From a virus: a stretch of DNA of 64,000 nucleotides. The position numbers and the translations under genes are program-made. The notes beneath the pieces are model-generated. The model ran no database searches. It saw only the letters and a list, made by a program, of their open reading frames with translations, and was not told the DNA's origin. The DNA lies in the IMG/VR virus record IMGVR_UViG_3300002231_001563, positions 64,001-128,000 of that record, one strand, 5' to 3'. This document shows positions 520 to 35,013 of the stretch, in pieces (positions within the stretch are counted from its first letter, which is position 1; every line of letters begins with the position of its first letter).

Positions 520-540
520 ACATGATCAAAAGGATAAAAA

Positions 541-1512: not shown

Positions 1513-1528
1513 GTTGGAGGTGTAAAAC

Positions 1529-3210: not shown

Positions 3211-3213
3211 TCC

Positions 3214-3242
3214 TTGACAAAGAGTCGCTTATATGTTATATT
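3214..3242 (+). promoter_or_regulatory. Sigma70-type promoter with extended -10 (primase/SbcCD)
   Basis: TTGACA (3214-3219), 17-nt spacer, TG-n-TATATT (3237-3242). Confidence 0.85.
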
Positions 3243-3248
3243 AACAAT

Positions 3249-18114: not shown

Positions 18115-19875
18115 ATGTCTATTATTAATAAATTAACTGAAGGCATTGTGCGCCGAGATCTCTCTAAAGAAGGTCACGCTCTTCTCACTAAGTGGGAAAA
18201 GACGGGACTTTTAGAGGGACTGGGTGCAGAACGCAAAAAGCATGGTATGGCATGCTTGCTTGAAAATCAAGCGAAGGAGCTTCTTCGAGAGGCATCCACT
18301 ATGGCAGGCGGTGACGTCGAAGGTTTTGCATCTGTTGCATTCCCAATCGTACGCCGCGTTTTCGGCGGATTGATCGCAAATGATCTTGTGTCCGTTCAAC
18401 CAATGAGCCTCCCATCGGGACTCATCTTCTTCCTGGATTTCACCTATCAGCGCGATCGCCTTGATATCACAGCGGATACTTCCGTATATGGTGGCGGAGT
18501 AGTTGGTTCGCAGATCACTGGCGGTGTTTCACTGGCCGGTAATGAATCCGAGCAAAGCTTTTACGCCCTCAACAACGGATATTCAAGTCCGACTGGTACA
18601 GCGGTCCTTAACTTTGACCACGCCGTAGGCGCCCTGGTCGGAGAAATTGTCGCTTCCGGTACAGTAGGTGCTGGCGTCCCCGGTGATTGGGGTGGTATCG
18701 GCGCAACCGCGACGGCATATAGTGCACTTGGCGATGGTCTTGTGCGATTCGATCCAGATATCGCTTCGGGAACTAATGTGGTTGTAGCAAGTATTCCTCT
18801 GGCAACATTGGCCGCAGGACTCCCAGCTACCTTGGCATTCAATATCAAAGATTATATTACTTTGACCCTGACCGATGGTGGATCAACAAGCCTAACAGCG
18901 GGCGCACAAGTTCGCCGCTTAACCGTGGATGACCCAATTACTGCTGGAAATGTTTTGGTCGCTGTTGCAGAAGGCACAGCCGCCGCAACAATCGCAAATT
19001 TGTCGGGTGCTTTAATGGCAACTGACGGCTGCGCGTTCGTTGCCGACGACAATTTTGACCAAGCAAGTGCAATCGGCGCGGTAGTGGGCGCCGAACAGTG
19101 GGGACTGGAAAACTCAGTACAGATTCCAGAAATCGACATCAAAGTCGACTCTGTGGCTGTCACTGCGAAGACCAAGAAGCTCAAAGCTAAATGGACACCA
19201 GAATTGGCCCAAGACTTGAATGCTTATCACAACCTCGATGCAGAAGTTGAATTGACAAGCATCCTTTCGGAGCACATTGCTCTCGAACTGGACCAAGAAA
19301 TCCTAGAAGACCTTATTAAGGGTGCTACAGCAGCAACTCTTCACTGGTCTAGGCTTCCTGGTAAATTCGTTAATCGTGAGACAGGCGCTCAATTGCCAAC
19401 CGTTGGAGCAGCACCAGACTTTACTGGTAATGTGAGCGAGTGGTATGAGACCTTGGCTGAAACTATTAACGATGTATCAGCACAAATCCACCGCAAGACC
19501 TTGAGAGGAGGCGCAAACTTCGTCGTGTGTTCACCTGAAGTTGCAAACCTTCTTGAATTTACCGCCGGATTCCGTGGAAGCATCACTCATGATGATGATC
19601 GCGGTACAGTGGGAGCTGTCAAAGTTGGTAACTTGAGTAAGAAGTTCGACGTCTATGTCGATCCTTATTTCCCAAGAAACGTGGTATTAGCAGGCCGTAA
19701 GGGATCCTCTTTCCTTGAAAGTGGATATGTATACGCGCCGTATGTACCTCTCCAAATGACTCCTACCATTTTCGGTACCGAGGACTTCGTGCCTCGTAAG
19801 GGCGTCATGACTCGCTATGCGAAGAAGATGGTCCGTCCGGATATGTATGGCCTTGTCATCGTAGAAGACCTCTAA
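18115..19875 (+). CDS. gp23: Major capsid protein (T4 gp23-like)
   Basis: LLENQ, FPIVRRVFGGLIANDLVSVQPM, KLKAKWTPELAQDLNAYH, GYVYAPYVPL; Ala/Gly/Thr-rich central insertion. Confidence 0.96.
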   Translation: MSIINKLTEGIVRRDLSKEGHALLTKWEKTGLLEGLGAERKKHGMACLLENQAKELLREASTMAGGDVEGFASVAFPIVRRVFGGLIANDLVSVQPMSLPSGLIFFLDFTYQRDRLDITADTSVYGGGVVGSQITGGVSLAGNESEQSFYALNNGYSSPTGTAVLNFDHAVGALVGEIVASGTVGAGVPGDWGGIGATATAYSALGDGLVRFDPDIASGTNVVVASIPLATLAAGLPATLAFNIKDYITLTLTDGGSTSLTAGAQVRRLTVDDPITAGNVLVAVAEGTAAATIANLSGALMATDGCAFVADDNFDQASAIGAVVGAEQWGLENSVQIPEIDIKVDSVAVTAKTKKLKAKWTPELAQDLNAYHNLDAEVELTSILSEHIALELDQEILEDLIKGATAATLHWSRLPGKFVNRETGAQLPTVGAAPDFTGNVSEWYETLAETINDVSAQIHRKTLRGGANFVVCSPEVANLLEFTAGFRGSITHDDDRGTVGAVKVGNLSKKFDVYVDPYFPRNVVLAGRKGSSFLESGYVYAPYVPLQMTPTIFGTEDFVPRKGVMTRYAKKMVRPDMYGLVIVEDL

Positions 19876-19912: not shown

Positions 19913-19940
19913 ACCCCTTCACAATTTGTGAAGGGGTTTT
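19913..19940 (+). terminator. Rho-independent terminator after the MCP
   Basis: ACCCCTTCACA-ATT-TGTGAAGGGGT then TTT; preceded by a second hairpin TATAAAGC-CCA-GCTTTATA (19880-19898). Confidence 0.85.
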
Positions 19941-19952
19941 GTGTTTCTAAAA

Positions 19953-19961
19953 ACTACTTAA
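19953..19961 (+). promoter_or_regulatory. Putative late-promoter motif ACTACTTAA (neck operon)
   Basis: Motif directly after the terminator and before the neck gene. Confidence 0.55.
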
Positions 19962-19979
19962 TGCAGAGGTTTTTATATC

Positions 19980-21248
19980 ATGGCTTTCCCTACCCTAACG
20001 CCCGCTAGTCAGGCAAGTAAATCAATTCTATCCCCAACTGGAACTGTTGCAGATGTCGCCGCATCCCTCCCTCTGGCCGTATATTCGAACTCTGACCCCT
20101 TTCTATCGGGTGCAGCCTCTCAGGTCGCCTATACTTACAGGAAATTGGGGGGAGATGTCCTTGATATCGAAATTAAGCCCGAGAATGTGTATGCTAATTA
20201 TCAAGAGGCAGTATTAGAATATAGCTATTTGGTGAACGTCCATCAGTCTAAAAATATGTTGTCGGATGTCCTCGGTCAGGCCACAGGAACTTTCGACGAA
20301 GACGGTCAATTAGTGACAGGCCCTACTGATGTTAATCTAAAATTCCCCCGGGTGATGTTTGAGTACGCCCGCAGGGTATCCGACTCTTTCTCATTTGAAG
20401 CCAATGTAGGGGGAACCATTCCCATCTATTCGGCATCGTTTACACTCAATAAGGGACAGCAAGATTATAATCTTCAGGCCATTATTTCTGGAAGTTCCGC
20501 TGCGGGAACTGGCTCGACCGGAACAACTGTGCCCTACGCCGGAGTGGTTGGGGACAAGAGAGTGATAATTAAAAAGGTGTATTACAAAACTCCGGCGGCA
20601 ATGTGGCGGTTTTTTGGGTATTTCGGCGGTCTTAACGTCGTGGGAAATCTTAATTATTATGGACAATACACTGATGACTCTACGTTTGAGTTAGTGCCAA
20701 CATGGCAAAATAAACTCCAGGCCATGGCATATGAGGACAATATTTATACTAGGCTTTCTCAATATTCGTATGAATTAGAAAACAATCATTTGAGAATCTT
20801 TCCAATGCCAGAACTTTTGAGCACATATAGACATATGTGGGTAGATTTTTCAGTGATTCCTAATAGTTGGGATAATCCGCCAGACTATGATGCCGGCGTC
20901 GATGGCATCAACAATATCAACACCCTCCCTTTTGATAACATTCCCTATGAGAATATAAATGCTATTGGGAAACAATGGATTCGCCGATTTGCTCTGGCCC
21001 TATCTAAGGAAACTTTGGGGCAAGTACGAGGCAAATTCCAGACGGTCCCTATTCCGGGGGAATCCGTCACTCTGAACGCCGCCGAACTTCTCGGTCAAGC
21101 GCAGGCTGAACAAGAGGCATTGAGGGAGGAACTGAAGACAATTCTCGATGAATTGACATATACGGCCATGGCCAAATCTGACGCTGAAAAGGCAAATGCG
21201 GTAGAAGATATTCAAAAGAAGGTACCAACCTTAATTTTCCAGGGGTAA
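19980..21248 (+). CDS. Neck/head-tail adaptor (T4 gp13-like)
   Basis: Position after the MCP; RKLGGDVLDIE and WIRRFALALSKETLGQVRGKF...LN motifs typical of gp13-like adaptors. Confidence 0.7.
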   Translation: MAFPTLTPASQASKSILSPTGTVADVAASLPLAVYSNSDPFLSGAASQVAYTYRKLGGDVLDIEIKPENVYANYQEAVLEYSYLVNVHQSKNMLSDVLGQATGTFDEDGQLVTGPTDVNLKFPRVMFEYARRVSDSFSFEANVGGTIPIYSASFTLNKGQQDYNLQAIISGSSAAGTGSTGTTVPYAGVVGDKRVIIKKVYYKTPAAMWRFFGYFGGLNVVGNLNYYGQYTDDSTFELVPTWQNKLQAMAYEDNIYTRLSQYSYELENNHLRIFPMPELLSTYRHMWVDFSVIPNSWDNPPDYDAGVDGINNINTLPFDNIPYENINAIGKQWIRRFALALSKETLGQVRGKFQTVPIPGESVTLNAAELLGQAQAEQEALREELKTILDELTYTAMAKSDAEKANAVEDIQKKVPTLIFQG

Positions 21249-21254
21249 TAAGAG

Positions 21255-22124
21255 ATGAGTAGTAAGAAAGAAGACTTCGATGAATTTCGTCCATATTACC
21301 CTCCTGCCCCAGCTAAGGAAAAGGTTCCCCTCAAAGAAGTTACCCTCATGCCATCGACGGTGGAGACGATCGATTTTGCTTTGAGCGATTGGCTCGAAGA
21401 AGATATGGATATTTATTGCACTACTAACGAGGGGTGGAAAAAGGTACCCATCGTCTGGTCAATGCCGGAAAGAGCATTTCAGGTTAAAGACAATAAAGAT
21501 TTAAGAAACAAAGATAACATTTTCACTTTTCCAGTAATGAGTGTGGAGCGAACCTCCCTCATTAAGGATCCGAACATGAAGGGAGTAGCATGGGCTCATA
21601 TTCCTCGCTATAATGACCCTCGCGGCGGCGCCATAACTGTAGCTCGGCGCATTCAACAAGAGAAGAGCGCGAATTTTGCAAATGCCGGAGCAAAAAGACG
21701 ATTTAATCAACCCACCTTTCCTTATGATAATAAGAAAGTGGTATATGAAACGATAACGATGCCCGTTCCGACCTATGTAGTGGCAAATTATAAAGTCACT
21801 ATTCATACGGAATATCAGCAACAAATGAATGAAATTTTCACTCCTTTTATGACTGCAACCGGGCAAATAAACAACTTTTTTATCACCCGTGACGGCCATA
21901 AATTTGAGGGGTTCATTCAGGATGATTTTTCTTTAGAAAATAATTTGTCCAATTTGGGCGACGAAGAGAGAGAATTTAAAACTATCATTAACTTGAAAGT
22001 TCTAGGTTATCTAATCGGCTCGGGCAAAAATGATAGCCAACCCAAAATTACCACCCGCGAGACAGCAGCTGAATTTAGATTCACCCGCGAGCGAGTGATG
22101 CTTGGCGATAAAAAGGACTATTAA
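21255..22124 (+). CDS. Tail completion/sheath stabiliser (T4 gp15-like)
   Basis: PVPTYVVANYKVTIHTEYQQQMNEI resembles the gp15 PVP..+.Y.+.+.T.......QI+E core; gene position. Confidence 0.6.
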   Translation: MSSKKEDFDEFRPYYPPAPAKEKVPLKEVTLMPSTVETIDFALSDWLEEDMDIYCTTNEGWKKVPIVWSMPERAFQVKDNKDLRNKDNIFTFPVMSVERTSLIKDPNMKGVAWAHIPRYNDPRGGAITVARRIQQEKSANFANAGAKRRFNQPTFPYDNKKVVYETITMPVPTYVVANYKVTIHTEYQQQMNEIFTPFMTATGQINNFFITRDGHKFEGFIQDDFSLENNLSNLGDEEREFKTIINLKVLGYLIGSGKNDSQPKITTRETAAEFRFTRERVMLGDKKDY

Positions 22125-22127
22125 TGA

Positions 22128-23033
22128 ATGGCAGATAATAAATGGACAAAGCCTACAAATCCCCCTCCCCCCTTATTCCTGGGAGAGAAGGAGCGCGATT
22201 TAGTTAAACAAGTCAATGACGAACTCTTGGAACGCGTCATTGGTCAGGCTATAACCTATCTCCCTTTATCCATGGAATATACTAATTTTCACCCCCTCTA
22301 TGGTGAAGCCATAGAGAAATCCTTTCTGCCTCCTGTTCGAGTTTACGCACTAGTGGAATTTGACGGAATTGGAACTATGACTTCCGATTATGGCCTTGAT
22401 AAGACCTACTCTATTGTAGTGCGCTTTCATGAACGCCGACTGCAGGAAGATCAGAATTTATATGTGAGAGAGGGTGACTATGTACAATATGGGTCTTCCT
22501 TTTTTGAAATCGTTAATCTTACCGAAGATCGCCAATTATTTGGCCAAGTAGAACACCTTTTTCAGATCGAAGCGCAATGTGTGCGAACCCGGAAAGGACT
22601 AATCGACTTCCAGGTGCTTTCAGAGGAAGTTCAACGTGCGGCCATTGCCAATGCCACGGCCATGGCAGCCCCCGCTGCACCCGCCGAGGAGCCGCCCGCC
22701 CCCGCTCCCGAAGCACCGGAGCCATATGAAGCGGCCCAGATTGTGTACGAGGCATCAGACCCCGACTCGGAGGTCGCGGGCGTTATTGCCACTCCTATTG
22801 CAGAAGGCGAATCCATCAATGATCTCTTTGGCATCGCCGAAGGAACTGAGCTGGACCTGAATACTATGATGATTTTCCAGAATGGTCTGTTGCAATTAGT
22901 AACTGAGACTGAGGGAGTGGGAGATTTTTATTTAAATGAAGATAATGAAATTATTTCTAATGGGGATTTAGCCCCCGGCACAACGCTGGTAGTGATATTT
23001 TTATCGGCTATCATGTCTTATTTTGGAGCGTAA
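22128..23033 (+). CDS. Head completion protein (T4 gp14-like) with Pro/Ala linker and extra C-terminal beta domain
   Basis: HPLYGEA, FHERRLQEDQNLYVREGD core; linker AAPAAPAEEPPAPAPE; terminal IFQNGLLQ domain. Confidence 0.65.
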   Translation: MADNKWTKPTNPPPPLFLGEKERDLVKQVNDELLERVIGQAITYLPLSMEYTNFHPLYGEAIEKSFLPPVRVYALVEFDGIGTMTSDYGLDKTYSIVVRFHERRLQEDQNLYVREGDYVQYGSSFFEIVNLTEDRQLFGQVEHLFQIEAQCVRTRKGLIDFQVLSEEVQRAAIANATAMAAPAAPAEEPPAPAPEAPEPYEAAQIVYEASDPDSEVAGVIATPIAEGESINDLFGIAEGTELDLNTMMIFQNGLLQLVTETEGVGDFYLNEDNEIISNGDLAPGTTLVVIFLSAIMSYFGA

Positions 23034-24245
23034 ATGAGTACTTTTCGAGAGCATAAAACAAGCGCAGATCGTTCAGCAGCCGACCGCAAAAGGCATAAAT
23101 CAAAAATTGAAAAAGCCCTCCGAGAAGGAATAAAAGATGTAGTAGCTGACGAATCTATTATAGGTCAGGATGGAAAAAAGAAAGTAAAAATTCCAGTCAA
23201 AGGAATTAAAGAATACCAGTTTGTATATGGAGATAATTCTCAAAATCAAAAAGCCGGCGCCGCCGGAGATAAAAATGTCAAAAAAGGACAGGTTTTGCGC
23301 AAAAAGGGCCGCTCACGCCAAGCCCAGGCGGGCGAAAAGGGCTCAGATAAGGTAGGCGAAGAATATTATGAGGTGGAAATTACCCTCGAAGAACTGGCGG
23401 AATATTTATTTGCTAATTTAGAACTTCCAGAATTGGAGAGAAAGAAGCTGCGCTTCCTAAAAGACAAGAAGCTACGCCGAAGTGGTTATAGAAAGAAAGG
23501 GATGCGTTCTAGGTTATCGAAGAAAGAGACTCTCAAACGAAAGATTCGGCGCCGCAAAAAAGCTGAAGCCAATGGGACATGGGATCCCGAATCTGGCGAA
23601 CGTTTTCCGTTTCATGAAGACGATTTAAAATATAAACATATGAAAGTAAAGAATAAAGAAAGCAGTTCGGCAGTTATTTTTTTCCTCATGGATGTGTCTG
23701 GCTCCATGGACAAAAATAAAAAATATATTGCTCGTAGTTTTTATTTTTTGTTGTATCAATTTCTGCGCTATAAGTACGAGAATATTGAGGTTGTTTTTAT
23801 CTCTCATTCCACTGACGCCAAGGAGGTAACGGAAGAAGAATTTTTCCAAAAAGCCACCACAGGGGGCACCATCATGTCTAGCGCCCTAGAATTAGAAAAA
23901 GAAATTATCTCCAAGCGATATCACCCGTCGAGTTGGAATATTTACACATTTTATACTGGAGACGGTGAAAACTGGACCACGGATAATAATAAGACGGTAA
24001 AACTCCTTAACGAACTTAAAGAAATAAATCAGATGATTTGTTATGCGGAAATTAATCCTTTTAGGAATCCGGAGTATGATGCTGATTTCGGCCGGAATTT
24101 TGGATATTCTCCAGACGCCGATCCCAACTCTTTGTGGTCTCGGCTCCTGCCACATCTTTCAGATAAATTTAAGGCAGTTAAACTTATGAGTCCCAAACAT
24201 ATTTGGCCCTCATTTCAGAAGATATTCGGAGGCATTACCCCATGA
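23034..24245 (+). CDS. yhbH: YhbH/YeaH (DUF444) vWA-domain protein
   Basis: ESII...KIPVKGIKEY, EITLEELAEYLFANLELPEL, FFLMDVSGSM (MIDAS), FISHSTDAKEV, GGTIMSSAL, GDGENW. Confidence 0.92.
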   Translation: MSTFREHKTSADRSAADRKRHKSKIEKALREGIKDVVADESIIGQDGKKKVKIPVKGIKEYQFVYGDNSQNQKAGAAGDKNVKKGQVLRKKGRSRQAQAGEKGSDKVGEEYYEVEITLEELAEYLFANLELPELERKKLRFLKDKKLRRSGYRKKGMRSRLSKKETLKRKIRRRKKAEANGTWDPESGERFPFHEDDLKYKHMKVKNKESSSAVIFFLMDVSGSMDKNKKYIARSFYFLLYQFLRYKYENIEVVFISHSTDAKEVTEEEFFQKATTGGTIMSSALELEKEIISKRYHPSSWNIYTFYTGDGENWTTDNNKTVKLLNELKEINQMICYAEINPFRNPEYDADFGRNFGYSPDADPNSLWSRLLPHLSDKFKAVKLMSPKHIWPSFQKIFGGITP

Positions 24246-25549
24246 AGAAAGTAACAATCAAAGAATTGCGTAAGTACGATAAAGAAATCTGCGATATCGC
24301 AAAAGAAAAATATGGTCTCGACTGGTTCCCTATTGAATATGAGATATTAGATTATAAAGAAATGTTGGGTGCCATGGCCTACACAGGCCTACCTACTCAC
24401 TATCGCCACTGGTCCTTTGGAAAATCATTTGAACGCACAGCTACCCGCTATAAATTAGGCATGGAAGGCCTGCCCTATGAAATGATCATTAACAGTGACC
24501 CCAGTATCGCTTATCTCATGCTTGAAAATCCCATGAGTATTCACTTACTTACGATGGCTCACTGTGTGGGCCATTCGGACTTTTTTAAGAATAACCGCAT
24601 GTTTCGGGAAACTGATCCTCAAAACATTTTAGCGCGCTTTAAGTCCGCATCAAAAAGGGTGCAAAAATATATTGAAGATCCCAACATTGGTATCGAGGCT
24701 GTGGAGATGATATTGGATGCGTGTCATGCTATTCAGTATCAGGTACCCCGCACACCCAATATCGCCCGCGACAGGCTGAGGGAAATGCTGGATGTAGCCA
24801 AGCGCCTAAAGCGGGAAAAAAATGACGACCTCCTTTTAGAAGAAGATAGCATGAAAGATTATAATTTACTAGCTTTTATAAGAAAGAATGCCCGAAATTT
24901 AGAAGATTGGCAAAGAGATCTGATGGAGATGGTGGAAAGAAGGGCGAAATATTTTATCCCCCAAGCCCGAACTAAGATTATGAACGAGGGGTGGGCAGTC
25001 ACTATACATGAAAAGATCATGAACGATCTTAAGCTCGGAGATGAATACCACCTTGGATTTTTGAAGACTCATAATCAGGTAGTTCGACCTATTGTGGGGA
25101 GAGTTAATCCCTATCATTTGGGATACACTATCTTTAAAAAAATCGAAAAAGAACATGGATTTGAAGAATGTAAGTTAGTTCGCGAGACTCAAGATGATGA
25201 AAGTTTTATACGAAAATATTTAGACGAAGAGTTGTGCCGAGAGCTAAATTTATTCAGCTACAGCTATAGTCAGCGCACAACAAATTATTCTATTGATGAT
25301 ATTTCTGATAAAGAAGGGTGGAAAAGCGTCAGGAGCGCCCTAATTAAGAACGTAGGGCTTAACTCCGTCCCGATTGTCTATGTGAGTGGATTTAATAAGA
25401 AAATGCAAACACTTTATTTAAAACATGAACACGACGGCCGCGACCTGGAGTTGGGTTATGCGAATAAAGTATACGACCATATTAGATATTTATGGGATGA
25501 CGATATTATTTTTACTTCTATCATAGAAGGGGAGCTTTGGGAATTTTAA
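24242..25549 (+). CDS. spoVR: SpoVR/YcgB family protein
   Basis: GLPTHYRHWSFGK, YEMIINSDPSIAYL, AHCVGHSDFFKNN, TKIMNEGWA, NPYHLG, LYLKHEHDGRDL; ATGA overlap gives start 24242. Confidence 0.93.
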   Translation: MKKVTIKELRKYDKEICDIAKEKYGLDWFPIEYEILDYKEMLGAMAYTGLPTHYRHWSFGKSFERTATRYKLGMEGLPYEMIINSDPSIAYLMLENPMSIHLLTMAHCVGHSDFFKNNRMFRETDPQNILARFKSASKRVQKYIEDPNIGIEAVEMILDACHAIQYQVPRTPNIARDRLREMLDVAKRLKREKNDDLLLEEDSMKDYNLLAFIRKNARNLEDWQRDLMEMVERRAKYFIPQARTKIMNEGWAVTIHEKIMNDLKLGDEYHLGFLKTHNQVVRPIVGRVNPYHLGYTIFKKIEKEHGFEECKLVRETQDDESFIRKYLDEELCRELNLFSYSYSQRTTNYSIDDISDKEGWKSVRSALIKNVGLNSVPIVYVSGFNKKMQTLYLKHEHDGRDLELGYANKVYDHIRYLWDDDIIFTSIIEGELWEF

Positions 25550-25550
25550 A

Positions 25551-27491
25551 ATGACAGATTCAAAAACAAATAAATTTATGAACATTGCGGAAAAGCACAA
25601 GAAGGCAACCAAGAGAAAGAAATTCTCAGGCACCTTCGCAGATTATCTCAACTTGATTGAGGAAGATCGGAGTATTGTGGATCTGGCCCACAAGCGGCTT
25701 TATAAAACCATTTTAGGGGAGGGAGTTACGAAGCTATCCCCCGAAGACCCGCGTTGCGCCAATCTATTTAACAGCGAAACCCTAAAAACTTATGATTATT
25801 TTCAGTCTAAGTTTTTTGGCATGGAGCGCCCCCTGGCTAAGGTGATGCGATATTTGCATTCTGCGGCCCTCAAGGGTGAAGAGAGTCGACAAGTTTTACT
25901 ACTTCTCGGGCCCGTAGGTGCAGGAAAGTCGGCCCTCGTGGAGCACATCAAGCGCGCCTTAGAGGCGTCTGGTCCACTCTACCAACTCAAAGATTGCCCC
26001 ATTCAGGAAGAACCAATTCACCTTATTCCACGCGGACTCCGCGAAGAATTCAAGAATATATATGGTATTCGTGTTGAGGGGGATTTATGCCCGGTATGCC
26101 GCCATCGTCTCTTAGAGGAATATGGAAGCAACTATATGGATTTCCCGGTTGTAGAATCGTCTTTTTCTATTCGCGCTCGACGCGGAGTGGGGGTTGTTCC
26201 ACCTATGGACGCCAATACCCAGGATACAAGCATTCTAATAGGGTCAGAAGACATTTCAAAGCTCGACCTATACCCAGAGGACGACCCCCGCGCGCTAAGC
26301 CTTAACGGGGCGTTTAACGTGGGAAATCGCGGAATTGTAGAGTTCGTCGAGGTATTCAAAAATGAGATCGAATTTTTACACACCATGATTACTGCAACTC
26401 AAGAAAAAGCAGTTCCCAGTCCAGGAAAAGGGGCCATGATTTATTTTGATGGAGTTATTCTGGCTCACTGTAATGAGGCTGAGTGGAATAAGTTTAAGTC
26501 TGAAAACACCAACGAAGCTATTTTGGATCGTATCGTCCGCGTGAATGTTCCTTATTGCCTGGAAGTGGAAGAAGAACAGAAAATTTACAATAAATTACTC
26601 AGTGAGTCGGATTTTGATTCTCACATTGCCCCCCACACTTTGGAGATCGCAGCCATGTTTTCAGTGTTGAGTAGACTAAAGCCCTCAAATAAAGTCGATC
26701 CTATTACTAAGATGAAGATATATAATGGCGATGAGATCGTTGAAAAGGGATATATTAAGAAAATTGATATTAATGATTTGAGAGAGGAAGTCCGCGATGA
26801 GGGGATGACCGGCATTTCGACTCGCTTCATTATGAAGGCTATTGATGCAGCGCTGGCCGATTCAGAGAAAGCTATGGTCACTCCCATCTCCATCCGCGAC
26901 GCCCTCATCAAACAAGTAAAAGAGCAAATTGTTGTTGAAGATTTGAGAGAAAAATATCTCTCCTTTTTACAAAAAGAACTTCACGATGAATACTTGAAAA
27001 TTTTAGAGACGGAAATTACGAAAGCTTTCGTTTCTGCCTATCAAGAGCAGGCAGAATCTCTCTTTGATAACTATTTGGACCATGCCGAGGCTTATGTCAA
27101 TTCGAGCAAGGTAAAAGATACGATTACGGGAGAGGAGATGGTACCCGATGAAGAATTCCTTTGCTCCATTGAAGAGCAGATAGGAATTGTAGGCGCCGCA
27201 AGAGAAAACTTCCGAGCAGACATCACAGCTTATATGTTTGCTAAACTGCGCCGCAAAGAGAAGATTGATTGGACTTCTTACGGGCCACTGAAAGAAGCGA
27301 TAGAGACAAAGCTCTTAATGTCAGTGCGTGATATATCTCGAATTGTAACCAAATCTAAGTCTCGCGACAAAAAACAACAGCAGAAATATAGTGAAATGGT
27401 AAAGACCCTCATTGAGGATTATGGATACAACGAAGATTCAGCCACTGAAATTATTAAATATGCTTCCAATAATCTATGGCGCGACAGCTAA
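25551..27491 (+). CDS. prkA: PrkA/YeaG family AAA+ ATPase (annotated serine kinase)
   Basis: Walker A GPVGAGKS, CPIQEEP, NRGIVEFVEVFK, AHCNEAEW, EAILDRIVRVNVPYCL, EGMTGISTRF. Confidence 0.95.
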   Translation: MTDSKTNKFMNIAEKHKKATKRKKFSGTFADYLNLIEEDRSIVDLAHKRLYKTILGEGVTKLSPEDPRCANLFNSETLKTYDYFQSKFFGMERPLAKVMRYLHSAALKGEESRQVLLLLGPVGAGKSALVEHIKRALEASGPLYQLKDCPIQEEPIHLIPRGLREEFKNIYGIRVEGDLCPVCRHRLLEEYGSNYMDFPVVESSFSIRARRGVGVVPPMDANTQDTSILIGSEDISKLDLYPEDDPRALSLNGAFNVGNRGIVEFVEVFKNEIEFLHTMITATQEKAVPSPGKGAMIYFDGVILAHCNEAEWNKFKSENTNEAILDRIVRVNVPYCLEVEEEQKIYNKLLSESDFDSHIAPHTLEIAAMFSVLSRLKPSNKVDPITKMKIYNGDEIVEKGYIKKIDINDLREEVRDEGMTGISTRFIMKAIDAALADSEKAMVTPISIRDALIKQVKEQIVVEDLREKYLSFLQKELHDEYLKILETEITKAFVSAYQEQAESLFDNYLDHAEAYVNSSKVKDTITGEEMVPDEEFLCSIEEQIGIVGAARENFRADITAYMFAKLRRKEKIDWTSYGPLKEAIETKLLMSVRDISRIVTKSKSRDKKQQQKYSEMVKTLIEDYGYNEDSATEIIKYASNNLWRDS

Positions 27492-27584
27492 ATAAAAATT
27501 AAAAACTCTTTTTTATAAAATAAGTGTCATAAATACGGTATTTTATCGATACTTTTATCAATAAAATAGGTTTTTTTTGCTTTT

Positions 27585-27647
27585 GGTGAAAGTGGGGTCT
27601 ATCTACGGGCGAACAGGTCTGTCCGCAGACCACGTTCACGTTTTTTT
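27585..27647 (+). promoter_or_regulatory. Structured RNA element (terminator/attenuator-like) in the PrkA-adhesin intergenic region
   Basis: Hairpin GGTCTG-TCCG-CAGACC with an alternative long-range pairing, followed by T7. Confidence 0.45.
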
Positions 27648-27740
27648 CAAAAATCGAGGTTTTTGTAAAGGACATATTTTCTTTTTTCAAGGAGGAAATA
27701 ATATGAAAATAAATCACAACAATAAGGGAGGACTAGCATT

Positions 27741-30700
27741 ATGGCTATAATTTCAAAATACCTTTTTGCAGGTACCTTCCAAGATTCTGTGGGTACAGTT
27801 CATGGAACGGCAAACGGAGGCATGGATGCTAGTGCCACCGATGGCGACCGAACCGTAGCTGTATTCGACGGAACCGATGATTACATTGATTTGGGTAGTG
27901 ATTTTCGCTTCAACACTGAAGACTTCACCTTTAGCATGTGGATCAAGCCACAATCCTCTCAGCAAGACTGGGCCAGGATTATGGGTACCTTGTACAATGA
28001 TCCAATTAGAGGCTGGGGTTTCGAACAAGAAGCGGGACAAACTAACAGATATAGGTTCCAATCATTTGATGGAAGCACTTGGACCGAGTCTGACGCGAAC
28101 AATGTACTTGAAATCACTCCTGATGTATGGTCTCACCTAGTTATTACTAGGTCTGGAACAGCCATTAAGGGGTACATAAACGGACAGCATGTGTACACGG
28201 CAGTGACACACGCTACGATGGATAGCACTCACAACTTTCAGTTGGGTACCAACCCCGCAGTCTCTCAGAATAACTGGGGCGACTATTGGGCCGGCTCAAT
28301 TGACGAATTCACAGTTCATGATGTAGCCTTGTCCGATGGGGAAGTGGAAACTTTGTACGACAATGATCCACTCACTCCGGTCACCGTTTCTTTGACCTTT
28401 GAAATGGTCGATTCCTACGGCGACGGCTGGAATGGGTCCACATTCCAGATATACGATGATGCAAATGTTACAGTCCAATCACTGACTCTGGCAGGCGGAG
28501 CGGGCCCCGAAGTGGTCTCGTTCGAACTTCCGGAAGGTGATTACACTTGGGCATTTGTGAGTCAAAATTGGATGAGCGAGGTTACGGCCACACTCACTAA
28601 CACAACAGCGGATCCTGACGAGCAGATACTTTTCAGTTCGGGTGGGAATTTATTGAGCGGAGCTTTTACTCTCTCGTTGCCCTTCCCGTCGATTTCGCCA
28701 ACTCTCGAAACGAGCGCTGGTGATATCACTATCTCTGTCACTCTCAATGATCTTGCTGTCAGTGCAGGCGCAACCGGCTGGGCATATTCATTGACGGATA
28801 TTTTCGTCGATGGCCAAGCCCACGGCGGCACTGCAGTGGCACTAGGAGCAGACGCAACAGTGAGCCCTACTCCGCATGGCGAACATGCTGTATATGTAGC
28901 AGCTATCGACACCAACGGACTTGTAGTGGTCAAGAATCAGGCCAGTATTAATAATACACCCCCCATAGAGGTAACGATTGTAAAGTCTGACTCTTACAAC
29001 GACTCGTGGGATGGCACAGTTCTTGAGATCCGCAATGCCGGCGACAACGCCCTGGCGCATTCTTCCACATTGGCCTCCGGAGCATCTCCCGAAACCATTT
29101 ATGTGGATTTAACTCCAGGTGATTATACTTGGGCTTTGGTGGGAGGAGGATATCCAGAGGAACATTCTGTGGATATCACACGTTCAAGCGACGGCCTTGC
29201 CTTAGCTTCGAGCGCAGCTTCTGTTCCGTCTAATGGTTCATTTACTCTAGCAGCACCCGGCCCATCCATTTCAGTGGATTCGACCACACAGCTGAATGGA
29301 GAAGTGACCATGGCAGTTTCGGCAAATGCTTTAGCAATCGCTGAAGGCGCAACCCACTGGGCTCACCAGGACGCTACGCCATTTGTCTTAGGAGCAACGC
29401 ACAGTGGAGCTACCAGCCTTTTGGCTGCCACTAGCACCGAGACATATGCTTCTGCGGGAGTAGAAACAATTCACGTCGCCGCCTTGGATGGCGCCGGGAC
29501 TGTTCTTGCTATCTCTAGTGTAGATGTGGACATATGGCTTCCCAAGGTGGCCATAGATGATGAATTTATCCTCACTACTTATTTGGACCACCCGTCAATT
29601 CCAGGCACTGGGGCCCATCCTCTTCTCGATGAAGATAATGAGCAATGGGGTCCTTTCTGGATCGGAGAACTTACAGTTAAATCTCTGTCAGTAGATTCTC
29701 AAGATGAGTCTACTATAGAGCAGGCTGTGACCTTTGATGATGGATCAGGCGGAACCCTGGATCTAGATTGGTTGATAAAGCAACTAATTATCAAAAACAA
29801 ATTGCACGAATTGAGCGGACCTCACGCCACTGCCGGCGCTGTGTTCAAATCAATTATAGATGGTACTGCGGCATTTGATGCAGCCGACCTACTCTCATGG
29901 AACGCTGAAGATACTCACACCATTCTCACGCCGGCTTCGCCGAGTGGATGGTCAGCAGACTATGATTTGCAGTTGTTTTCCGATAGTGGAACTACTACTC
30001 TTATCGAATATGCTTCGGGCACCGGTACGGTTAGTGGGCCCAATGGCGCAGGAAATGTAGCATATCTTTTCGCCGCCGACTTCGAAGTGGCCGCAGACCC
30101 GACCGCGCAACACCCTAGAGGTGCTGCAGACGCCCAATACGACCTGTCAAGCGATGGGGCGGATAGTGTGGGGTCGAATGACGGTACTCTATTCGGAGAT
30201 CCACAATTTGGACTAGAAGATGGTCGAGGATTTATTACCCTCGACGGTACAGGGGATTATGTGAGAGTTCCCCACGACGCGTCTAATAATTTTGGAGATC
30301 CAAGCCAGAACTTCACTATAAGTTTCTGGTTTAAAACGGATGCTGATTACAGTATTCTGTCGAAAGGGCGCCCATCTTCAGCAAGCGATTTCTGGGGCTT
30401 CTATATAGACGCGGGCCGAATTGTGTTCCGAGCTTGGGATCAAGGGCCAGACGCGGCATATACCGCAACCAGTGAAACCGATACTTTCACCGATAATTTG
30501 TGGCACCACGTAGTTGTTTCACACGACTCTGGTACGGCATATTTATATGTGGACGGAAATTGTGAAGCTTCTGTGGAATTAACTCAGAATCATTCCAATA
30601 GTGATTATCTCACTATCGGAGCCTATTTCAATTATTCTTGGGGTGACAATTACTTCACCGGGGATATTTCAGACGTCCGTTTGTGGACTTCAGAAAGTTC

Positions 30701-33700
30701 TTGGCTTAATGTCACGACCATGTACCAGGAAGGAGTTCCCTCGTCTCTCGGGGCATCGACTTCTGTTTCTGGCGACGACGTAACTATCTCTGTTTCGCCC
30801 AATCTAAATGCTATCGCAGATGGCATTGTAGCATGGGCTTATTCAGTGGACACTCCTTTGGGTGCAGTAGGGAATCCTCACGGTGGAACTGCGGCGGTAC
30901 TTGGGAATAGTGAAGTAGTGACGGTTGCAGTAGGACAGCATGATATCTATGCTGCGGGAATTGATGCATCTGGAAATGTGGTTTTACCACAATCTCAAGT
31001 GTCTATCGATACAACTCCCATGGTAACCCTGAGGTTTGATTGGTACGCTGATCACTGGAGCGGTTTTAACTCCAGGACTTTCGAGCTATTGGATTCAGGG
31101 GATAATATAGTCCACTCCGTCTCACCTGCTTCCGCAGGCGCAGGCACAGAGAATATTACTATCCCCCAGGATACTTATAAATGGCAGGTTGTAGCTTATC
31201 GTAACGACTATAAGGATATCGAGAACCACGCGCAAGCAACGTTCCAGGTCTGGCAGATTGACATCGATGAGTATGGTTCTGACTTTCTCTTGCTAGAGAA
31301 GGGATCAGATCTGGATGGAAATCCAGGACCCTTCGTCGCACAAGCGAATAACGGAGGTTATGGCAACATAATGCAAGGCCCGCACAACATAGTTCTTCCA
31401 AGGCCGCCTGAACATGAAAACCTCACGGTTCCAGTTTGGGAAGCAGGAAAAACATACCAGTGGGCAAACTGGCAATCAGAACAGAATGTGACGGATTATG
31501 GAGGGTATGTTGATTTCTCACTTAGTGTAGACATCGATGATCTTCCTTTCGCCCCAGGTGGGCTACCATCTGCTGGTGCCATCACACTAGTTGTTGATGG
31601 AATCGATATCAGCGGTGCACCCTTTGCTGACAGGACCCTTATCTACACTTATACAGGTCTAGATAATCCAGGCTCTCTGTACGATGGGGCCACATTGCAG
31701 ACGATTAACGGCAACGCGGCAAGCCCACTTGAGGAGAATTTCTGGAGAATACACCAGTTAAGCAATTATGACTTCGATGGGTCGGATAATGTGACGGATA
31801 ACGTAATTATATCTTTGCAGCCGGGTTTTCCGAATATTGCAACTCCAAATCCAGCAAGGCCAATGCCTGGCTTATTACAGCCTGGAAGTAATCTTGTCAT
31901 TAAGGCACTCCTAATCACCTCTGCTGGGGTAGATTATGACGTCTTGGCAAACATTAAATACTCCAGTTCCTTGACTAGTCAAGCTGTTGATGTAGTCTCT
32001 CATTCCTTGAGTTTGAGCGGCGCCACAATGGCGGCTGGCTTCGCGCAGGGAGATATCGAGCTATACGATGATACAGATCAACTTATCGCGACATATGGAG
32101 ACACTGCCACAGCGGGTGAAGCTTTTGCTTACGCTGTAAAATTGACCGAAGGTATTTATTACCTTAAGATGAAAGACAACGAAAACGACGGGATGTTTAC
32201 TTTAGAAAACAACCTCGCCACTGTAGTCTTTCAGGGGACGAATTTAGCAACAGGATTAAGTGATGAAAAGAGCGTAATACCTACAGTTGCCGAATTTTTA
32301 GCCAACCCAGAGACGCATGACGGCACATCTGATGATAATGCTCACGCGCGCCTCTACTTTGAGATCGGCGCAGATTTATCTGTTGCCATTCCGTATACTC
32401 AAGGGGATACGGTTTATTATACCAATGCAGGTCTGACCCCAGAGGGCTGGACAGGGCAAGTCTATGATGATTCTACGGGATCAAATATCGTAGAAAGTTG
32501 GTACACATGGCCAACTGGCGCAGGTTTTCCTAGTGCTGGAGTTGGGACCTTGATCGATAATGGTCAAGGGGGCGGTAATAACAATAATAACAATAATAAT
32601 AACCAAGGAGGAGAAAACAACATGGCTAGAATTATTAAAAATAGGGTTGATTTAAGAACCCAAATGGAAGACGGTGAACATGAGGGGCCTTTCGGTACCG
32701 TTGGAGCTGAATTCCTTAAAGGCGACGGTCGCGCCATTGTCGATTTTGTAATGGACAACGACCACCACATCATTAATAAGGGACTCGTCAAGGGTTCTTA
32801 TGATGCACTAATTGCAGACGTTGCAGCCGAAGAATCATCATATGATGTTCAGAAGGCCACCGACGATGCAACTGAAGTTACAGAAGAGGGTGAAGTTGCT
32901 GCTGAATTGGCAGTTCTTGAAGCTCTCATGGCAGAAGGTATTAGCTGGAAAAGCCCAGAGCTTACAGTTGATGATGCGTTCGCACGCGCCATCGCTGATC
33001 GCGATGCCGGAAATCCATGGCTCAACGGAAGTGTCGTAGCTATCCATACTGACCTTCTGGTTCTACTTGTACTGAAGGAGTCGGACTTAGAAGCGCAAAT
33101 TTGCACTCAAGCAGGCGCCGTTAACGCAGCCGAAATCGCAGCAGACATCACCAGTGGCGCGCTTGCCCCAACAGACGTGGTTCCGTTCCTCGTCGGCATC
33201 ACCTCTATGGAGCCTGATCGACTTTTCGATTTCAGTAGCCTTGAGTTAGCTGTACAGAACCTAATGGACGTCGATGATCAGTTCACCGGCCTTATGGGTT
33301 TCGACCCAGAGGCTATGAGTGTTCAGGATCAGTGTGATGCTGCACGCGCACACGCGATCGCTGCTTATACCACCGCAGTTGGTCAAACTGAGCAAATGGC
33401 TCAAGCTTCTTCAAACTTCATCACAGCATTACTTGCTGAAGATAAGGATAGTGATCTTAGCTATACTGGCACTTACGCCGCAGCTTCTGATCTTACGGCC
33501 TCTCTTCTCGGCCCCAACGCTGGCAGTCGCCAGTTAAAGGACGTCGAAGTATATGTCGCAGGTGTAAGATCTTTTGATTCTTTCGCCATCGATGCAGTCG
33601 CAGGAACAGTAACGATTTTGGCCGGCGTCCACGAGGACGGCGCTCCAATTCAGATTTTCGCTAGAATGGAACTCATTACTGAAAGAGCGAATCCTCTAGG

Positions 33701-33707
33701 AGCCTAA
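27741..33707 (+). CDS. Giant modular fibre/adhesin (2 LamG domains, repeated beta-sandwiches, C-terminal fibre module)
   Basis: Two LamG/ConA units (FDGTDDYI...FTFSMWIK...WSHLV...GSIDEF; LDGTGDYV...FTISFWFK...WHHVV...GDISDV), DSYGDGWNG-type repeats, three WAYS/HGGTA Ig-like repeats; GGGAGG SD. Confidence 0.8.
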   Translation: MAIISKYLFAGTFQDSVGTVHGTANGGMDASATDGDRTVAVFDGTDDYIDLGSDFRFNTEDFTFSMWIKPQSSQQDWARIMGTLYNDPIRGWGFEQEAGQTNRYRFQSFDGSTWTESDANNVLEITPDVWSHLVITRSGTAIKGYINGQHVYTAVTHATMDSTHNFQLGTNPAVSQNNWGDYWAGSIDEFTVHDVALSDGEVETLYDNDPLTPVTVSLTFEMVDSYGDGWNGSTFQIYDDANVTVQSLTLAGGAGPEVVSFELPEGDYTWAFVSQNWMSEVTATLTNTTADPDEQILFSSGGNLLSGAFTLSLPFPSISPTLETSAGDITISVTLNDLAVSAGATGWAYSLTDIFVDGQAHGGTAVALGADATVSPTPHGEHAVYVAAIDTNGLVVVKNQASINNTPPIEVTIVKSDSYNDSWDGTVLEIRNAGDNALAHSSTLASGASPETIYVDLTPGDYTWALVGGGYPEEHSVDITRSSDGLALASSAASVPSNGSFTLAAPGPSISVDSTTQLNGEVTMAVSANALAIAEGATHWAHQDATPFVLGATHSGATSLLAATSTETYASAGVETIHVAALDGAGTVLAISSVDVDIWLPKVAIDDEFILTTYLDHPSIPGTGAHPLLDEDNEQWGPFWIGELTVKSLSVDSQDESTIEQAVTFDDGSGGTLDLDWLIKQLIIKNKLHELSGPHATAGAVFKSIIDGTAAFDAADLLSWNAEDTHTILTPASPSGWSADYDLQLFSDSGTTTLIEYASGTGTVSGPNGAGNVAYLFAADFEVAADPTAQHPRGAADAQYDLSSDGADSVGSNDGTLFGDPQFGLEDGRGFITLDGTGDYVRVPHDASNNFGDPSQNFTISFWFKTDADYSILSKGRPSSASDFWGFYIDAGRIVFRAWDQGPDAAYTATSETDTFTDNLWHHVVVSHDSGTAYLYVDGNCEASVELTQNHSNSDYLTIGAYFNYSWGDNYFTGDISDVRLWTSESSWLNVTTMYQEGVPSSLGASTSVSGDDVTISVSPNLNAIADGIVAWAYSVDTPLGAVGNPHGGTAAVLGNSEVVTVAVGQHDIYAAGIDASGNVVLPQSQVSIDTTPMVTLRFDWYADHWSGFNSRTFELLDSGDNIVHSVSPASAGAGTENITIPQDTYKWQVVAYRNDYKDIENHAQATFQVWQIDIDEYGSDFLLLEKGSDLDGNPGPFVAQANNGGYGNIMQGPHNIVLPRPPEHENLTVPVWEAGKTYQWANWQSEQNVTDYGGYVDFSLSVDIDDLPFAPGGLPSAGAITLVVDGIDISGAPFADRTLIYTYTGLDNPGSLYDGATLQTINGNAASPLEENFWRIHQLSNYDFDGSDNVTDNVIISLQPGFPNIATPNPARPMPGLLQPGSNLVIKALLITSAGVDYDVLANIKYSSSLTSQAVDVVSHSLSLSGATMAAGFAQGDIELYDDTDQLIATYGDTATAGEAFAYAVKLTEGIYYLKMKDNENDGMFTLENNLATVVFQGTNLATGLSDEKSVIPTVAEFLANPETHDGTSDDNAHARLYFEIGADLSVAIPYTQGDTVYYTNAGLTPEGWTGQVYDDSTGSNIVESWYTWPTGAGFPSAGVGTLIDNGQGGGNNNNNNNNNQGGENNMARIIKNRVDLRTQMEDGEHEGPFGTVGAEFLKGDGRAIVDFVMDNDHHIINKGLVKGSYDALIADVAAEESSYDVQKATDDATEVTEEGEVAAELAVLEALMAEGISWKSPELTVDDAFARAIADRDAGNPWLNGSVVAIHTDLLVLLVLKESDLEAQICTQAGAVNAAEIAADITSGALAPTDVVPFLVGITSMEPDRLFDFSSLELAVQNLMDVDDQFTGLMGFDPEAMSVQDQCDAARAHAIAAYTTAVGQTEQMAQASSNFITALLAEDKDSDLSYTGTYAAASDLTASLLGPNAGSRQLKDVEVYVAGVRSFDSFAIDAVAGTVTILAGVHEDGAPIQIFARMELITERANPLGA
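32575..32603 (+). repeat. (AAT/AAC)n tract encoding poly-Asn
   Basis: GGT AAT AAC AAT AAT AAC AAT AAT AAT AAC directly before an internal AAGGAGGAG. Confidence 0.9.
32622..33707 (+). CDS. Internally initiated acidic fibre protein (MARIIKNRV...), in frame with the giant ORF
   Basis: CAAGGAGGAGAAAACAAC-ATG, resembling the RBS of the next two genes; shares motifs with them. Confidence 0.65.
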   Translation: MARIIKNRVDLRTQMEDGEHEGPFGTVGAEFLKGDGRAIVDFVMDNDHHIINKGLVKGSYDALIADVAAEESSYDVQKATDDATEVTEEGEVAAELAVLEALMAEGISWKSPELTVDDAFARAIADRDAGNPWLNGSVVAIHTDLLVLLVLKESDLEAQICTQAGAVNAAEIAADITSGALAPTDVVPFLVGITSMEPDRLFDFSSLELAVQNLMDVDDQFTGLMGFDPEAMSVQDQCDAARAHAIAAYTTAVGQTEQMAQASSNFITALLAEDKDSDLSYTGTYAAASDLTASLLGPNAGSRQLKDVEVYVAGVRSFDSFAIDAVAGTVTILAGVHEDGAPIQIFARMELITERANPLGA

Positions 33708-33768: not shown

Positions 33769-35013
33769 ATGGCAAAAACAAAACTAGTCCCCGGACAAAT
33801 TAATAATAAAGAAGTAGCAGGCGCAGGTGGCCTTCTAGACGGAAACCTCTTAAGAGCCGACGGCTCCGTAGCTTTTCGCTTGGAAACGGACGAATATGCA
33901 GTTGCTGATTCTAAAACTATCGCCAATAAATGGCTCCACGACCGCGAGGTCGCCGCTGCCACTGGCGTGGATGCTGCTGGAGGTGCCGATGAGGCAACTC
34001 TTCTTGCTGCTTCCGAAACCTCAGTCGCTGCTGACGCTTCTTTGGCATCAATGGACGCGACTCGCAGACTCAAAAAGCTGCAATACGACGAAAAAGATGA
34101 AGATATGTTTGAAATGAAAGCTATCTATCAAGGAATGGCACCTAACATTCGCGGCGTTGATTTAAGCACTGTTATGGCAGCTGCTCACGACAACGGTGCA
34201 GTAGGTGCTGCACGCCGCGCTGACCTATGGTTACGCTTGGCAGAGTTTAAGCAATTGCTTCAAACTGGCTATATCTTCTTGGAACCATTCGCAGGAAATG
34301 AAGCAGGTCTCAAGGCACAATCTCTTGCAGACGCCCCACAGGGATCTGTCCAGGTTCCATCCGTCCCATCCGAAACTTTCGACGGCGCAACCATCGATGT
34401 ATGGTACCGTAAAGGCGCCGCAGGCGTTGAGGCAGACTGGGTAAGGTTTGCTGATTACTGGGAAGAAGCCGGCTTCCAGGGAGACGGTCAAGCTTCCATT
34501 ACCGATACGGGCTTGTACATAGAGCTTGTAACGGACGTTAATGGATTGCACTCCGCAGCTCACAGCCATATGGCACAAGCAGACATTGAAGCGGCTCAGC
34601 GCTTGTCCGATCTTCAGAATATCGAAATTGATATTATGGATGTTGCTTGGCAAGCATCTGCATCTATCTGCGAACGTCGTGGATCGCAAGCTGTAATCGC
34701 ATCGGGTCCAACCATGCAGGTAGGCCTCTATGCCTCTGCTCCTGAGCTTGGAGCCCCGGATGCAGCCTCAATTCGCCACTTTGTAAATGGCATTTTGCAG
34801 CCCGCACAAGCCTACACTATTACGGAAGACGCTGGTACATACAAGGTAGAGATTACAGGTCTCACCCTAGGACACCAGGTCGTCGTAGATTTCCGCAGAC
34901 TTTTGGTTGATGGAGGCGGTGAAGGTCACTTAGGCCCTTATTCTATTACCAACCACTATGCCAGTAATCAGAGCGAAGTCGACATTAGTGACGAACTCGC
35001 CACACTTGCATAA
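33769..35013 (+). CDS. Acidic Ala-rich fibre-like virion protein
   Basis: AAAGGAG SD; LRADGSVAF and IANKWLHD fibre-type motifs; C-terminal FVNGILQP..YTI domain. Confidence 0.55.
   Translation: MAKTKLVPGQINNKEVAGAGGLLDGNLLRADGSVAFRLETDEYAVADSKTIANKWLHDREVAAATGVDAAGGADEATLLAASETSVAADASLASMDATRRLKKLQYDEKDEDMFEMKAIYQGMAPNIRGVDLSTVMAAAHDNGAVGAARRADLWLRLAEFKQLLQTGYIFLEPFAGNEAGLKAQSLADAPQGSVQVPSVPSETFDGATIDVWYRKGAAGVEADWVRFADYWEEAGFQGDGQASITDTGLYIELVTDVNGLHSAAHSHMAQADIEAAQRLSDLQNIEIDIMDVAWQASASICERRGSQAVIASGPTMQVGLYASAPELGAPDAASIRHFVNGILQPAQAYTITEDAGTYKVEITGLTLGHQVVVDFRRLLVDGGGEGHLGPYSITNHYASNQSEVDISDELATLA

Follow-up and report, generated by a model that had tools for sequence, protein, structure and literature searches.

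What does a T4-like phage gain from three genes that in bacteria usually form an operon? We addressed this question for the IMG/VR virus record IMGVR_UViG_3300002231_001563, which comprises 167,580 bp (CheckV completeness 92%); the part analysed, bases 64001–128000 of the record (64,000 nucleotides), is called the window, and all coordinates refer to it. Six tightly packed genes lie between its major capsid gene and a gene for a 1988-amino-acid fibre-like protein, and the last three of these (the trio) encode YhbH/YeaH, SpoVR/YcgB and PrkA/YeaG proteins. On the evidence of sequence comparison, they are shown to be true, functional and phage-adapted members of the PrkA/YeaG–YhbH/YeaH–SpoVR/YcgB module; the cassette is likewise shown to have been acquired once, long ago and as a unit, by the ancestor of a large family of uncultured marine T4-like myoviruses, to have then been rotated, and to have been inherited under strong purifying selection since its acquisition. 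Concerning the function, our confidence is evenly balanced for and against a self-sufficient machine that is expressed late and recycles host proteins in an ATP-dependent manner. The three genes are the following:

23034–24245, + strand: YhbH/YeaH (DUF444), 403 amino acids; PF04285 at 3e-108; basic/helical N-terminal region and C-terminal vWA domain with a full MIDAS
24242–25549, + strand: SpoVR/YcgB, 435 amino acids from the ATG; PF04293 at 1e-117
25551–27491, + strand: PrkA/YeaG(SpdA), 646 amino acids; PF08298 (AAA_PrkA) at 7e-145 and PF06798 (PrkA C-terminal, pseudokinase-like domain) at 5e-79

A preliminary description made from the letters of the DNA had reported three full-length, translationally coupled genes with intact motifs, and the open reading frames, Pfam matches and junction reads bear this out. 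The junction between the upstream gene and yhbH reads gcgTAAATGagt at 23031 (TAAATG), that between yhbH and spoVR reads ccATGAag at 24242 (ATGA), and that between spoVR and prkA reads ttTAAAATGaca at 25546 (TAAAATG). The list of open reading frames lets SpoVR begin at a TTG (24203); the relatives align from the Met encoded at 24242, and for this reason the ATG there is preferred.

The YhbH protein matches PF04285 over its whole length (362.9 bits, Pfam cut-off 27). Its MIDAS reads DVSGS, and D220, S222, S224, T279 and D310 are invariant in 47 phage copies. An AlphaFold2 (AF2) model has a predicted local distance difference test score (pLDDT) of 71 overall and of 74–95, mostly above 84, in the 10-residue blocks of residues 151–340. 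The model has 172 matches to vWA structures of the PDB at E ≤ 0.001, including Rea1-MIDAS and the VWA domain of NorD, which is bound to the AAA+ protein NorQ; at the sequence level, YhbH matches no solved structure. PrkA matches PF08298 with 483 bits and PF06798 with 266 bits (cut-offs 25), covering positions 2–358/358 and 1–255/255 of the profiles. Its Walker A motif is GPVGAGKS. The alignment with 9xip, a ‘serine protein kinase’ of solved structure, spans residues 18–640 (8e-100) and includes a pair of conserved Cys motifs. The MoxR-type domain AAA_5 is matched with 17.9 bits, below the cut-off of 22, and over residues 116–143 only. All three phage proteins fall below the NCBIfam equivalog cut-offs (TIGR02877 for YhbH: 388.8 bits, cut-off 468; NF011999 for PrkA: 414 bits, cut-off 576), and by these scores the phage PrkA is a divergent member of its family and no equivalog of the enterobacterial protein. 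PrkA-like proteins of 1000–1570 residues also occur in public data (P0129, P0131, P0133, P0150, P0168 and P0170); in these, the PrkA-matching part is split and lies at the C-terminal end.

SpoVR matches PF04293 with 393.9 bits (cut-off 27), and its SpoVR_C domain scores 25.0 bits, just below the Pfam cut-off of 27.6. It contains the motifs HCVGH and NEGWA, of which H107, H111, N248, E249 and G250 are invariant in the alignment. The AF2 model (pLDDT 81) was compared with 48,161 chains using VIA-align, and most of the top 50 matches are zincin metallopeptidases (Z 11.6–6.2, residues 1–337); the families found are M1 aminopeptidases, thermolysin (M4), M3, M32, M61 and DUF885. No solved structure is matched by the SpoVR sequence. 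In H107-C-V-G-H111, Cys108 is present in at least 90% of the copies and the catalytic Glu of HExxH is not found; because this Glu is replaced by a conserved Cys, SpoVR is treated as a predicted zincin derivative of uncertain activity.

Relatives of the trio are widespread. A scan of IMG/VR gave at least 149 contigs with a PrkA relative, of which 80 loci (62–86% identical) were fetched and are the basis of the locus counts given here; thousands more relatives, from marine metagenomes including Tara, are present in a large protein collection. The order YhbH–SpoVR–PrkA is found in all 80 loci where the contig extends far enough. Inactivating lesions were sought in these relatives, and the catalytic motifs turned out to be kept in nearly all copies: the MIDAS (DxSxS) in 73/73, the Walker A motif (GxxGxGK[ST]) in 78/78 and the SpoVR NEG in 75/75 phage copies, while the fuller SpoVR His motif (HxxxH[ST]DF) is kept in 72/75. 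The ratio of nonsynonymous to synonymous substitution rates (dN/dS), calculated from 30 sampled pairs per gene, is about 0.03–0.05 for all three genes, a rough value as dS is near saturation. A megablast search of GenBank phages with the 4.4-kb region gave no match, in a collection that may lack records close to the genome of the window.

Gene trees were built with FastTree, with SH-like support only; the PrkA tree has 128 rows. The marine phage clade is monophyletic in the PrkA, YhbH and SpoVR trees (SH-like support 99, 87 and 99, respectively) and its inner groupings match, so that the phylogeny, proposed earlier as a check for recent host capture, speaks for an old phage clade and against such capture. 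In a HMMER search of 1.84 billion representative proteins, only three are more than 41% identical to PrkA (P0124 56%, P0125 50% and P0126 50%), all of them on cellular contigs with the order prkA–DUF444–spoVR. Copies of these types are the nearest neighbours of the phage clade in the trees. P0126 is encoded on the 3.28-Mb chromosome CP117982.1, which is read as Bacillota-like, beside dnaB, ytxC and an SLH-domain gene. The P0124-type copy is standard in the phylum of a metagenome-assembled genome (MAG) titled Bdellovibrionota, where 113/124 genomes have a PrkA match, about 100 of them at 55–60% identity. Bdellovibrionota-type and Bacillota-type bacteria are the candidate donors.

The nearest cellular relatives are the operons of Bdellovibrionota and of CP117982.1. 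The Bdellovibrionota proteins are 55–60% (PrkA), 38–46% (YhbH) and 38–41% (SpoVR) identical to those of the phage. The CP117982.1 copy is the nearest sister of the phage clade in the PrkA tree; in the YhbH and SpoVR trees the copies of both groups form a clade separate from the phage. In each of the cellular loci that were examined, prkA leads the operon. These are four chromosomal loci of Bdellovibrionota (one on a contig of 3.26 Mb), three other cellular contigs and Enterobacter yeaG–yeaH, and the earlier remark that bacteria have prkA first therefore held. Cellular genomes contain no copy of more than 60% identity, except for five MAG contigs with a phage-type copy (the phage-type order is confirmed in three). 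These five carry the inconsistent labels Luteolibacter, Halobacteriovorax, Bdellovibrionota, Proteobacteria and Anaerolineaceae.

Compared with E. coli yeaG(spdA)–yeaH plus ycgB, and with most bacterial prkA–yhbH–spoVR operons, the phage trio has the same three full-length Pfam families, the same Walker A, MIDAS and SpoVR His motifs and the same organisation as one translationally coupled operon. The differences are in the order (prkA first in bacteria, rotated to yhbH–spoVR–prkA in the phage), in the identity (about 33% between the phage PrkA and Enterobacter YeaG, taken from the flank of the phage LAU1 record) and in the control: the E. coli module is driven by RpoS or NtrC, whereas that of the phage is in a lytic-type T4-like genome with a late-type motif. 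MoxR-type pairs (NorQ–NorD, CbbQ–CbbO) and Rea1-MIDAS likewise combine an AAA+ ATPase with a MIDAS-bearing vWA protein; unlike the MoxR-family ATPases, PrkA has its AAA_5 match under the cut-off, a kinase-like C-terminal domain and SpoVR as a third obligatory partner.

Other phages also possess the module. The Thermus phages phiYS40, TMA, YS40_Isch and MN1 (annotated ‘SpoVR’ and ‘serine kinase’) have the same rotated order of YhbH-like protein, SpoVR and PrkA. However, their PrkA is only 33–35% identical and is found in a different tree clade, their trio is located among nucleotide-metabolism genes, and in phiYS40 spoVR and prkA are separated by an extra gene of 616 amino acids. The Thermus trio was apparently acquired independently, and its order rotated independently. 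The Ralstonia jumbo phage RsoM2USA and the huge uncultured phages LR756502 and LR756511 contain the module in the bacterial order, with prkA first. The PrkA proteins of RsoM2USA and LR756502 group with enterobacterial/proteobacterial YeaG and that of LR756511 is elsewhere in the tree; because of this grouping with proteobacterial YeaG or other cellular clades, the trees place these three as separate, more recent captures. The record of Enterobacter phage LAU1 (L091, MN688132.1, bases 1–3308) opens with an enterobacterial yeaG–yeaH beside tail genes, which looks like a host flank in a prophage-derived record.

The window contains a T4-like structural module on the + strand, recognised by Pfam and PHROG matches. 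Its main features and the signals around the trio are:

9931, + strand: large terminase
11524, + strand: portal
15213, + strand: prohead protease
18115–19875, + strand: gp23-like major capsid gene
19913–19937, + strand: strong intrinsic terminator after the capsid gene; 11-bp stem with 6 GC pairs, then a T run
19953–19961, + strand: late-promoter-like motif ACTACTTAA, the sole copy before the operon that ends with prkA
19980–21248, + strand: structural gene, 422 amino acids; weak match to phrog_211 ‘head-tail adaptor Ad2’ (1.6e-11); kept 5' of the trio in 11 related loci
21255–22124, + strand: gene of 289 amino acids, structural by position only; syntenic in 12 related loci
22128–23033, + strand: gene of 301 amino acids, called the neck gene in the preliminary description; its stop abuts the yhbH start
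27596–27647, + strand: hairpin followed by T7 in the gap of about 250 nt after prkA; probable transcript end
27741–33707, 33769–35013 and 35051–36448: fibre-like genes, a block of about 9 kb between prkA and the sheath gene
37060, + strand: tail sheath
+ strand, within the structural module: tube, hub and tape measure, by family matches

The + strand of the window holds 14 copies of the motif ACTAYTTAW and the other strand none (2.1 copies expected on both strands together), and most copies are just 5' of structural genes, for example at 16273, 17068, 19953, 36533, 37000, 40008 and 41727. It is a candidate late promoter of this phage family. After the copy at 19953 the next is at 29574. That no terminator is visible from the motif at 19953 to 27491 had been stated before and is confirmed by a terminator scan of the + strand, which between 19980 and 27491 found no site comparable in strength to 19913–19937, and only two weaker sites, at 24553 and 26945, both within coding sequence. 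Downstream, 27492–27660 folds at −35.4 kcal/mol (z −2.4); the hairpin at 27596–27647 was not called by the terminator scan because its T run begins 9 nt past the stem. Based on these signals, a late transcript most likely begins at 19953 and has the trio at its 3' end. Among the relatives, the late-type motif (with up to one mismatch) is found 12–53 nt, mostly 12–28 nt, before yhbH in 16/63 distinct loci, compared with 3.3% of random windows, and late expression may be a conserved feature of the trio.

Turning to function, two recent lines of work on the bacterial proteins are relevant. In E. coli, yeaG (renamed spdA) is needed for the starvation-induced, largely non-specific degradation of cytoplasmic proteins, a source of amino acids and ATP from which new synthesis is fed (PMC13684143, 2026 PNAS). 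For B. subtilis PrkA, Zhang et al. detected ATP hydrolysis and no kinase activity; its degradation of casein depends on ATP and the Walker A Lys (PMC9512850). Tight co-fitness of yeaG, yeaH and ycgB was also seen in six bacteria (10.1101/072470). The protein-recycling reading is based on the bulk proteolysis of E. coli YeaG/SpdA, the ATP-dependent protease activity of B. subtilis PrkA and the predicted zincin-like fold of SpoVR. In 38 of the loci, a PIN-PhoH fusion gene follows the trio on the same strand at a distance of up to 10 kb (e.g. L021:11944–13284), and in 5 of them it comes directly after prkA. The carriage of all three genes, the late expression and this frequent phoH neighbour, a starvation-regulon gene, fit a role in feeding virion synthesis.

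In such a mechanism, PrkA would be an AAA+ ring that unfolds proteins with ATP, YhbH would be the adaptor whose MIDAS-bearing vWA domain docks on the ring or on substrates, and SpoVR, as a zincin-like metal-binding protein, would be the hydrolytic or regulatory partner. The trio would thereby run a host-independent version of the starvation-induced programme of bulk protein degradation, and host cytoplasmic proteins would be converted to amino acids and energy while virion proteins are made in nutrient-poor seawater. A more specific proposal is that the trio is a three-part ATP-dependent protease (PrkA as unfoldase ring, YhbH as vWA/MIDAS adaptor and SpoVR as zincin-derived hydrolase) with which an abundant marine myovirus family liquidates the host proteome late in infection. 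We put it forward tentatively and consider it rather unlikely in this full form; if true, it would be a virus-encoded, autophagy-like auxiliary function feeding virion synthesis in starved cells.

Several points weigh against protein recycling. Concerning SpoVR, the model has no match in the PDB at E ≤ 0.001 with Foldseek, the zincin match is that of a predicted model, with Z values to which helical proteins can come by chance, and the protein lacks the catalytic Glu of HExxH, hence it may be no peptidase. Concerning PrkA, neither Lon_C nor any other peptidase family is among the Pfam matches at E ≤ 0.01, and its proteolysis in vitro is very slow (24 h; PMC9512850). The bulk-proteolysis role of YeaG is a genetic one, and YeaG could be a regulator rather than a protease. 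Finally, the late-promoter role of ACTAYTTAW is a predicted one.

Of the rival explanations, regulation of the host state ranks first, selective protein removal second, and a chaperone of virion assembly well behind. In the first, pseudokinase/ATPase signalling would act as a regulatory switch that drives the host into a state resembling stationary phase or dormancy, or keeps it from entering one, and bulk proteolysis would not be the purpose. The first description of YeaG was that of a kinase, and the co-fitness of yeaG, yeaH and ycgB led Price et al. to propose a conserved signalling pathway (10.1101/072470); the mutant phenotypes vary between species, PrkA affects the initiation of sporulation, the kinase-like C-terminal domain of PrkA is strongly conserved in the phage, and marine virome work took viral spoVR as manipulating the physiological state of the host (PMC8940887). 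We nevertheless regard this switch as improbable, since in B. subtilis PrkA no kinase activity was detected and ATPase-dependent proteolysis was (PMC9512850), the E. coli phenotype is a change of degradation flux across the proteome (PMC13684143), and a signal alone would not obviously keep three large genes (4.4 kb) under strong selection. The statement in the preliminary description that the trio reprogrammes host dormancy is too vague in our judgement and leans on the sporulation name; ATP-dependent degradation of proteins is what more recent papers suggest (PMC9512850, PMC13684143).

The substrates of the trio might also be few, such as regulators, defence proteins or ribosome hibernation factors, whose targeted proteolysis or remodelling would serve host takeover or counter-defence. 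The vWA/MIDAS adaptors of AAA+ rings usually confer substrate specificity, and Rea1-MIDAS and NorD-VWA are among the best structural matches of YhbH; PrkA, too, degraded casein and not haemoglobin (PMC9512850). On the other hand, no known family of defence or counter-defence systems was matched, the PADLOC models giving chance-level hits only (E 0.004–0.01); degradation in E. coli is for the most part non-specific (PMC13684143), and the high conservation across very different genomes (172–293 kb) is more easily reconciled with a general target than with a fast-evolving one in defence. Targeted removal is doubtful, slightly more so than the regulatory switch.

The trio had also been proposed to assemble the adjacent neck or fibre proteins, as a virion component or as a MoxR-like AAA+/vWA pair that folds or installs them. 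In this phage and in 15 fetched relatives (16/80 loci), the trio is indeed inside the structural module and shares its transcript, and AAA+/vWA pairs such as NorQ/NorD are assembly chaperones. However, the remaining 64/80 loci have no structural genes beside the trio and are flanked instead by PIN-PhoH, the GroEL-like gene described below, a DNA helicase, an endolysin or a DUF2201 gene. Five genomes with the non-structural position (172–293 kb, one closed by terminal repeats) have a capsid protein 58–76% identical over the aligned part, and the loci of both positions are of the same phage family; in these five, tens of kb (65 kb or more) separate the capsid gene and the trio. The group of the window is nested, in the PrkA tree, among lineages with the non-structural position, and because of this nesting the structural-operon placement is derived and says little on function. 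The genes 3' of prkA also vary among close relatives (fibre genes here; the sheath gene less than 300 nt after prkA in L009 and L016), the MoxR-type AAA_5 match is under the cut-off, and the cellular module operates in cells without virions. The trio is thus very unlikely to help build the virion neck, and the label ‘neck’ for the gene at 22128–23033 was itself not supported: with its product, PHROG gave no match at E ≤ 0.01 and Pfam one at chance level only, and the weak head–tail adaptor match is that of 19980–21248 alone. That the trio is an artefact, either a chimera of the assembly or contaminating bacterial DNA fused to that of the phage, is a negligible possibility, which the recurrent synteny already refutes: the junctions from the structural gene to yhbH and from prkA to the fibre or sheath gene recur on independent contigs from many metagenomes. 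The GC content dips slightly over the trio (0.40–0.43, flanks 0.43–0.50), but these values are within the range of the window itself (0.375–0.516), and cellular copies of more than 60% identity are confined to the five MAG contigs.

The preliminary description knew of no functional account of such a module in a phage. As a claim of novelty this was overstated insofar as the trio is already annotated in the cultured Thermus phages phiYS40, TMA and MN1, and listed without comment for RsoM2USA, and viral spoVR is a known auxiliary metabolic gene; the part that stands is that no functional or comparative study of the phage-borne module was found in the literature searched. That phages break down the DNA of the host to obtain nucleotides, and that they carry metabolic genes related to photosynthesis, phosphate and nitrogen, is established; we know of no dedicated phage machine described for the recycling of host protein. 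The bacterial module itself was an orphan until work of 2022–2026 tied PrkA/YeaG to ATP-dependent and to starvation-induced proteolysis. The retention of the complete trio, under strong selection, by a large and abundant family of marine phages is an independent argument for the three proteins forming one self-sufficient unit, and the phage clade supplies hundreds of diverged natural sequences for structure–function work. In viromes of a Pacific oxygen minimum zone, spoVR was reported as the most abundant ‘sporulation’ auxiliary gene and was read as sporulation control (PMC8940887); the present analysis corrects this treatment, in surveys of marine viromes, of viral ‘spoVR’ as a gene for sporulation.

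Concerning the host, an assignment was attempted and no transfer RNA genes were found in the window. The nearest cultured phages infect Flavobacterium, Microcystis and Rhodothermus, with 42–50% identity in capsid or terminase, and all are without PrkA. Three of the MAG contigs with phage-type trios (L084, L085 and L086, of 14, 101 and 89 kb) belong to MAGs titled Luteolibacter, Halobacteriovorax and Bdellovibrionota, respectively; both Bdellovibrionota-type MAGs also have a chromosomal prkA of their own. The trios on these three contigs are either the result of mis-binning or a hint of the host.

As regards the remaining neighbours in the window, Pfam and PHROG searches with the product of 21255–22124 gave no match. 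A sigma-70 promoter scan of the window was no better than shuffled sequences, and GAGGTTTTT, considered as a shared leader motif, is at chance level (3 copies, 0.97 expected; reached in 10/100 shuffles). The interval 27492–27740 is the longest intergenic gap of the region; it holds a short ORF-like ATG and has no late-type motif ahead of the 1988-amino-acid fibre-like gene. The 9-kb fibre-like block is missing in L009 and L016, where the sheath gene directly follows prkA, and it is therefore a variable host-recognition insert.

Among the relatives, a GroEL-like gene of 441 amino acids is located directly after prkA in 18 loci (e.g. L038:11938–13263), none of them in the subgroup of the window. 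The resemblance to GroEL is weak (NCBIfam 2e-12, PHROG 1e-13) and limited to residues of about 200–400; in those lineages, the protein is a possible fourth partner of the trio. A DUF2201 gene (putative metallopeptidase plus vWA-like domain) is found within 10 kb of the trio in 9 loci (e.g. L024:18477–19784) and is a second vWA-linked, metallopeptidase-type gene near it. Finally, the contig of locus L078 (G130), a complete genome of 293 kb with terminal repeats, contains two tandem gp23-like capsid paralogues at about 176.3–180.1 kb, each 63–64% identical to the window capsid over its C-terminal half.

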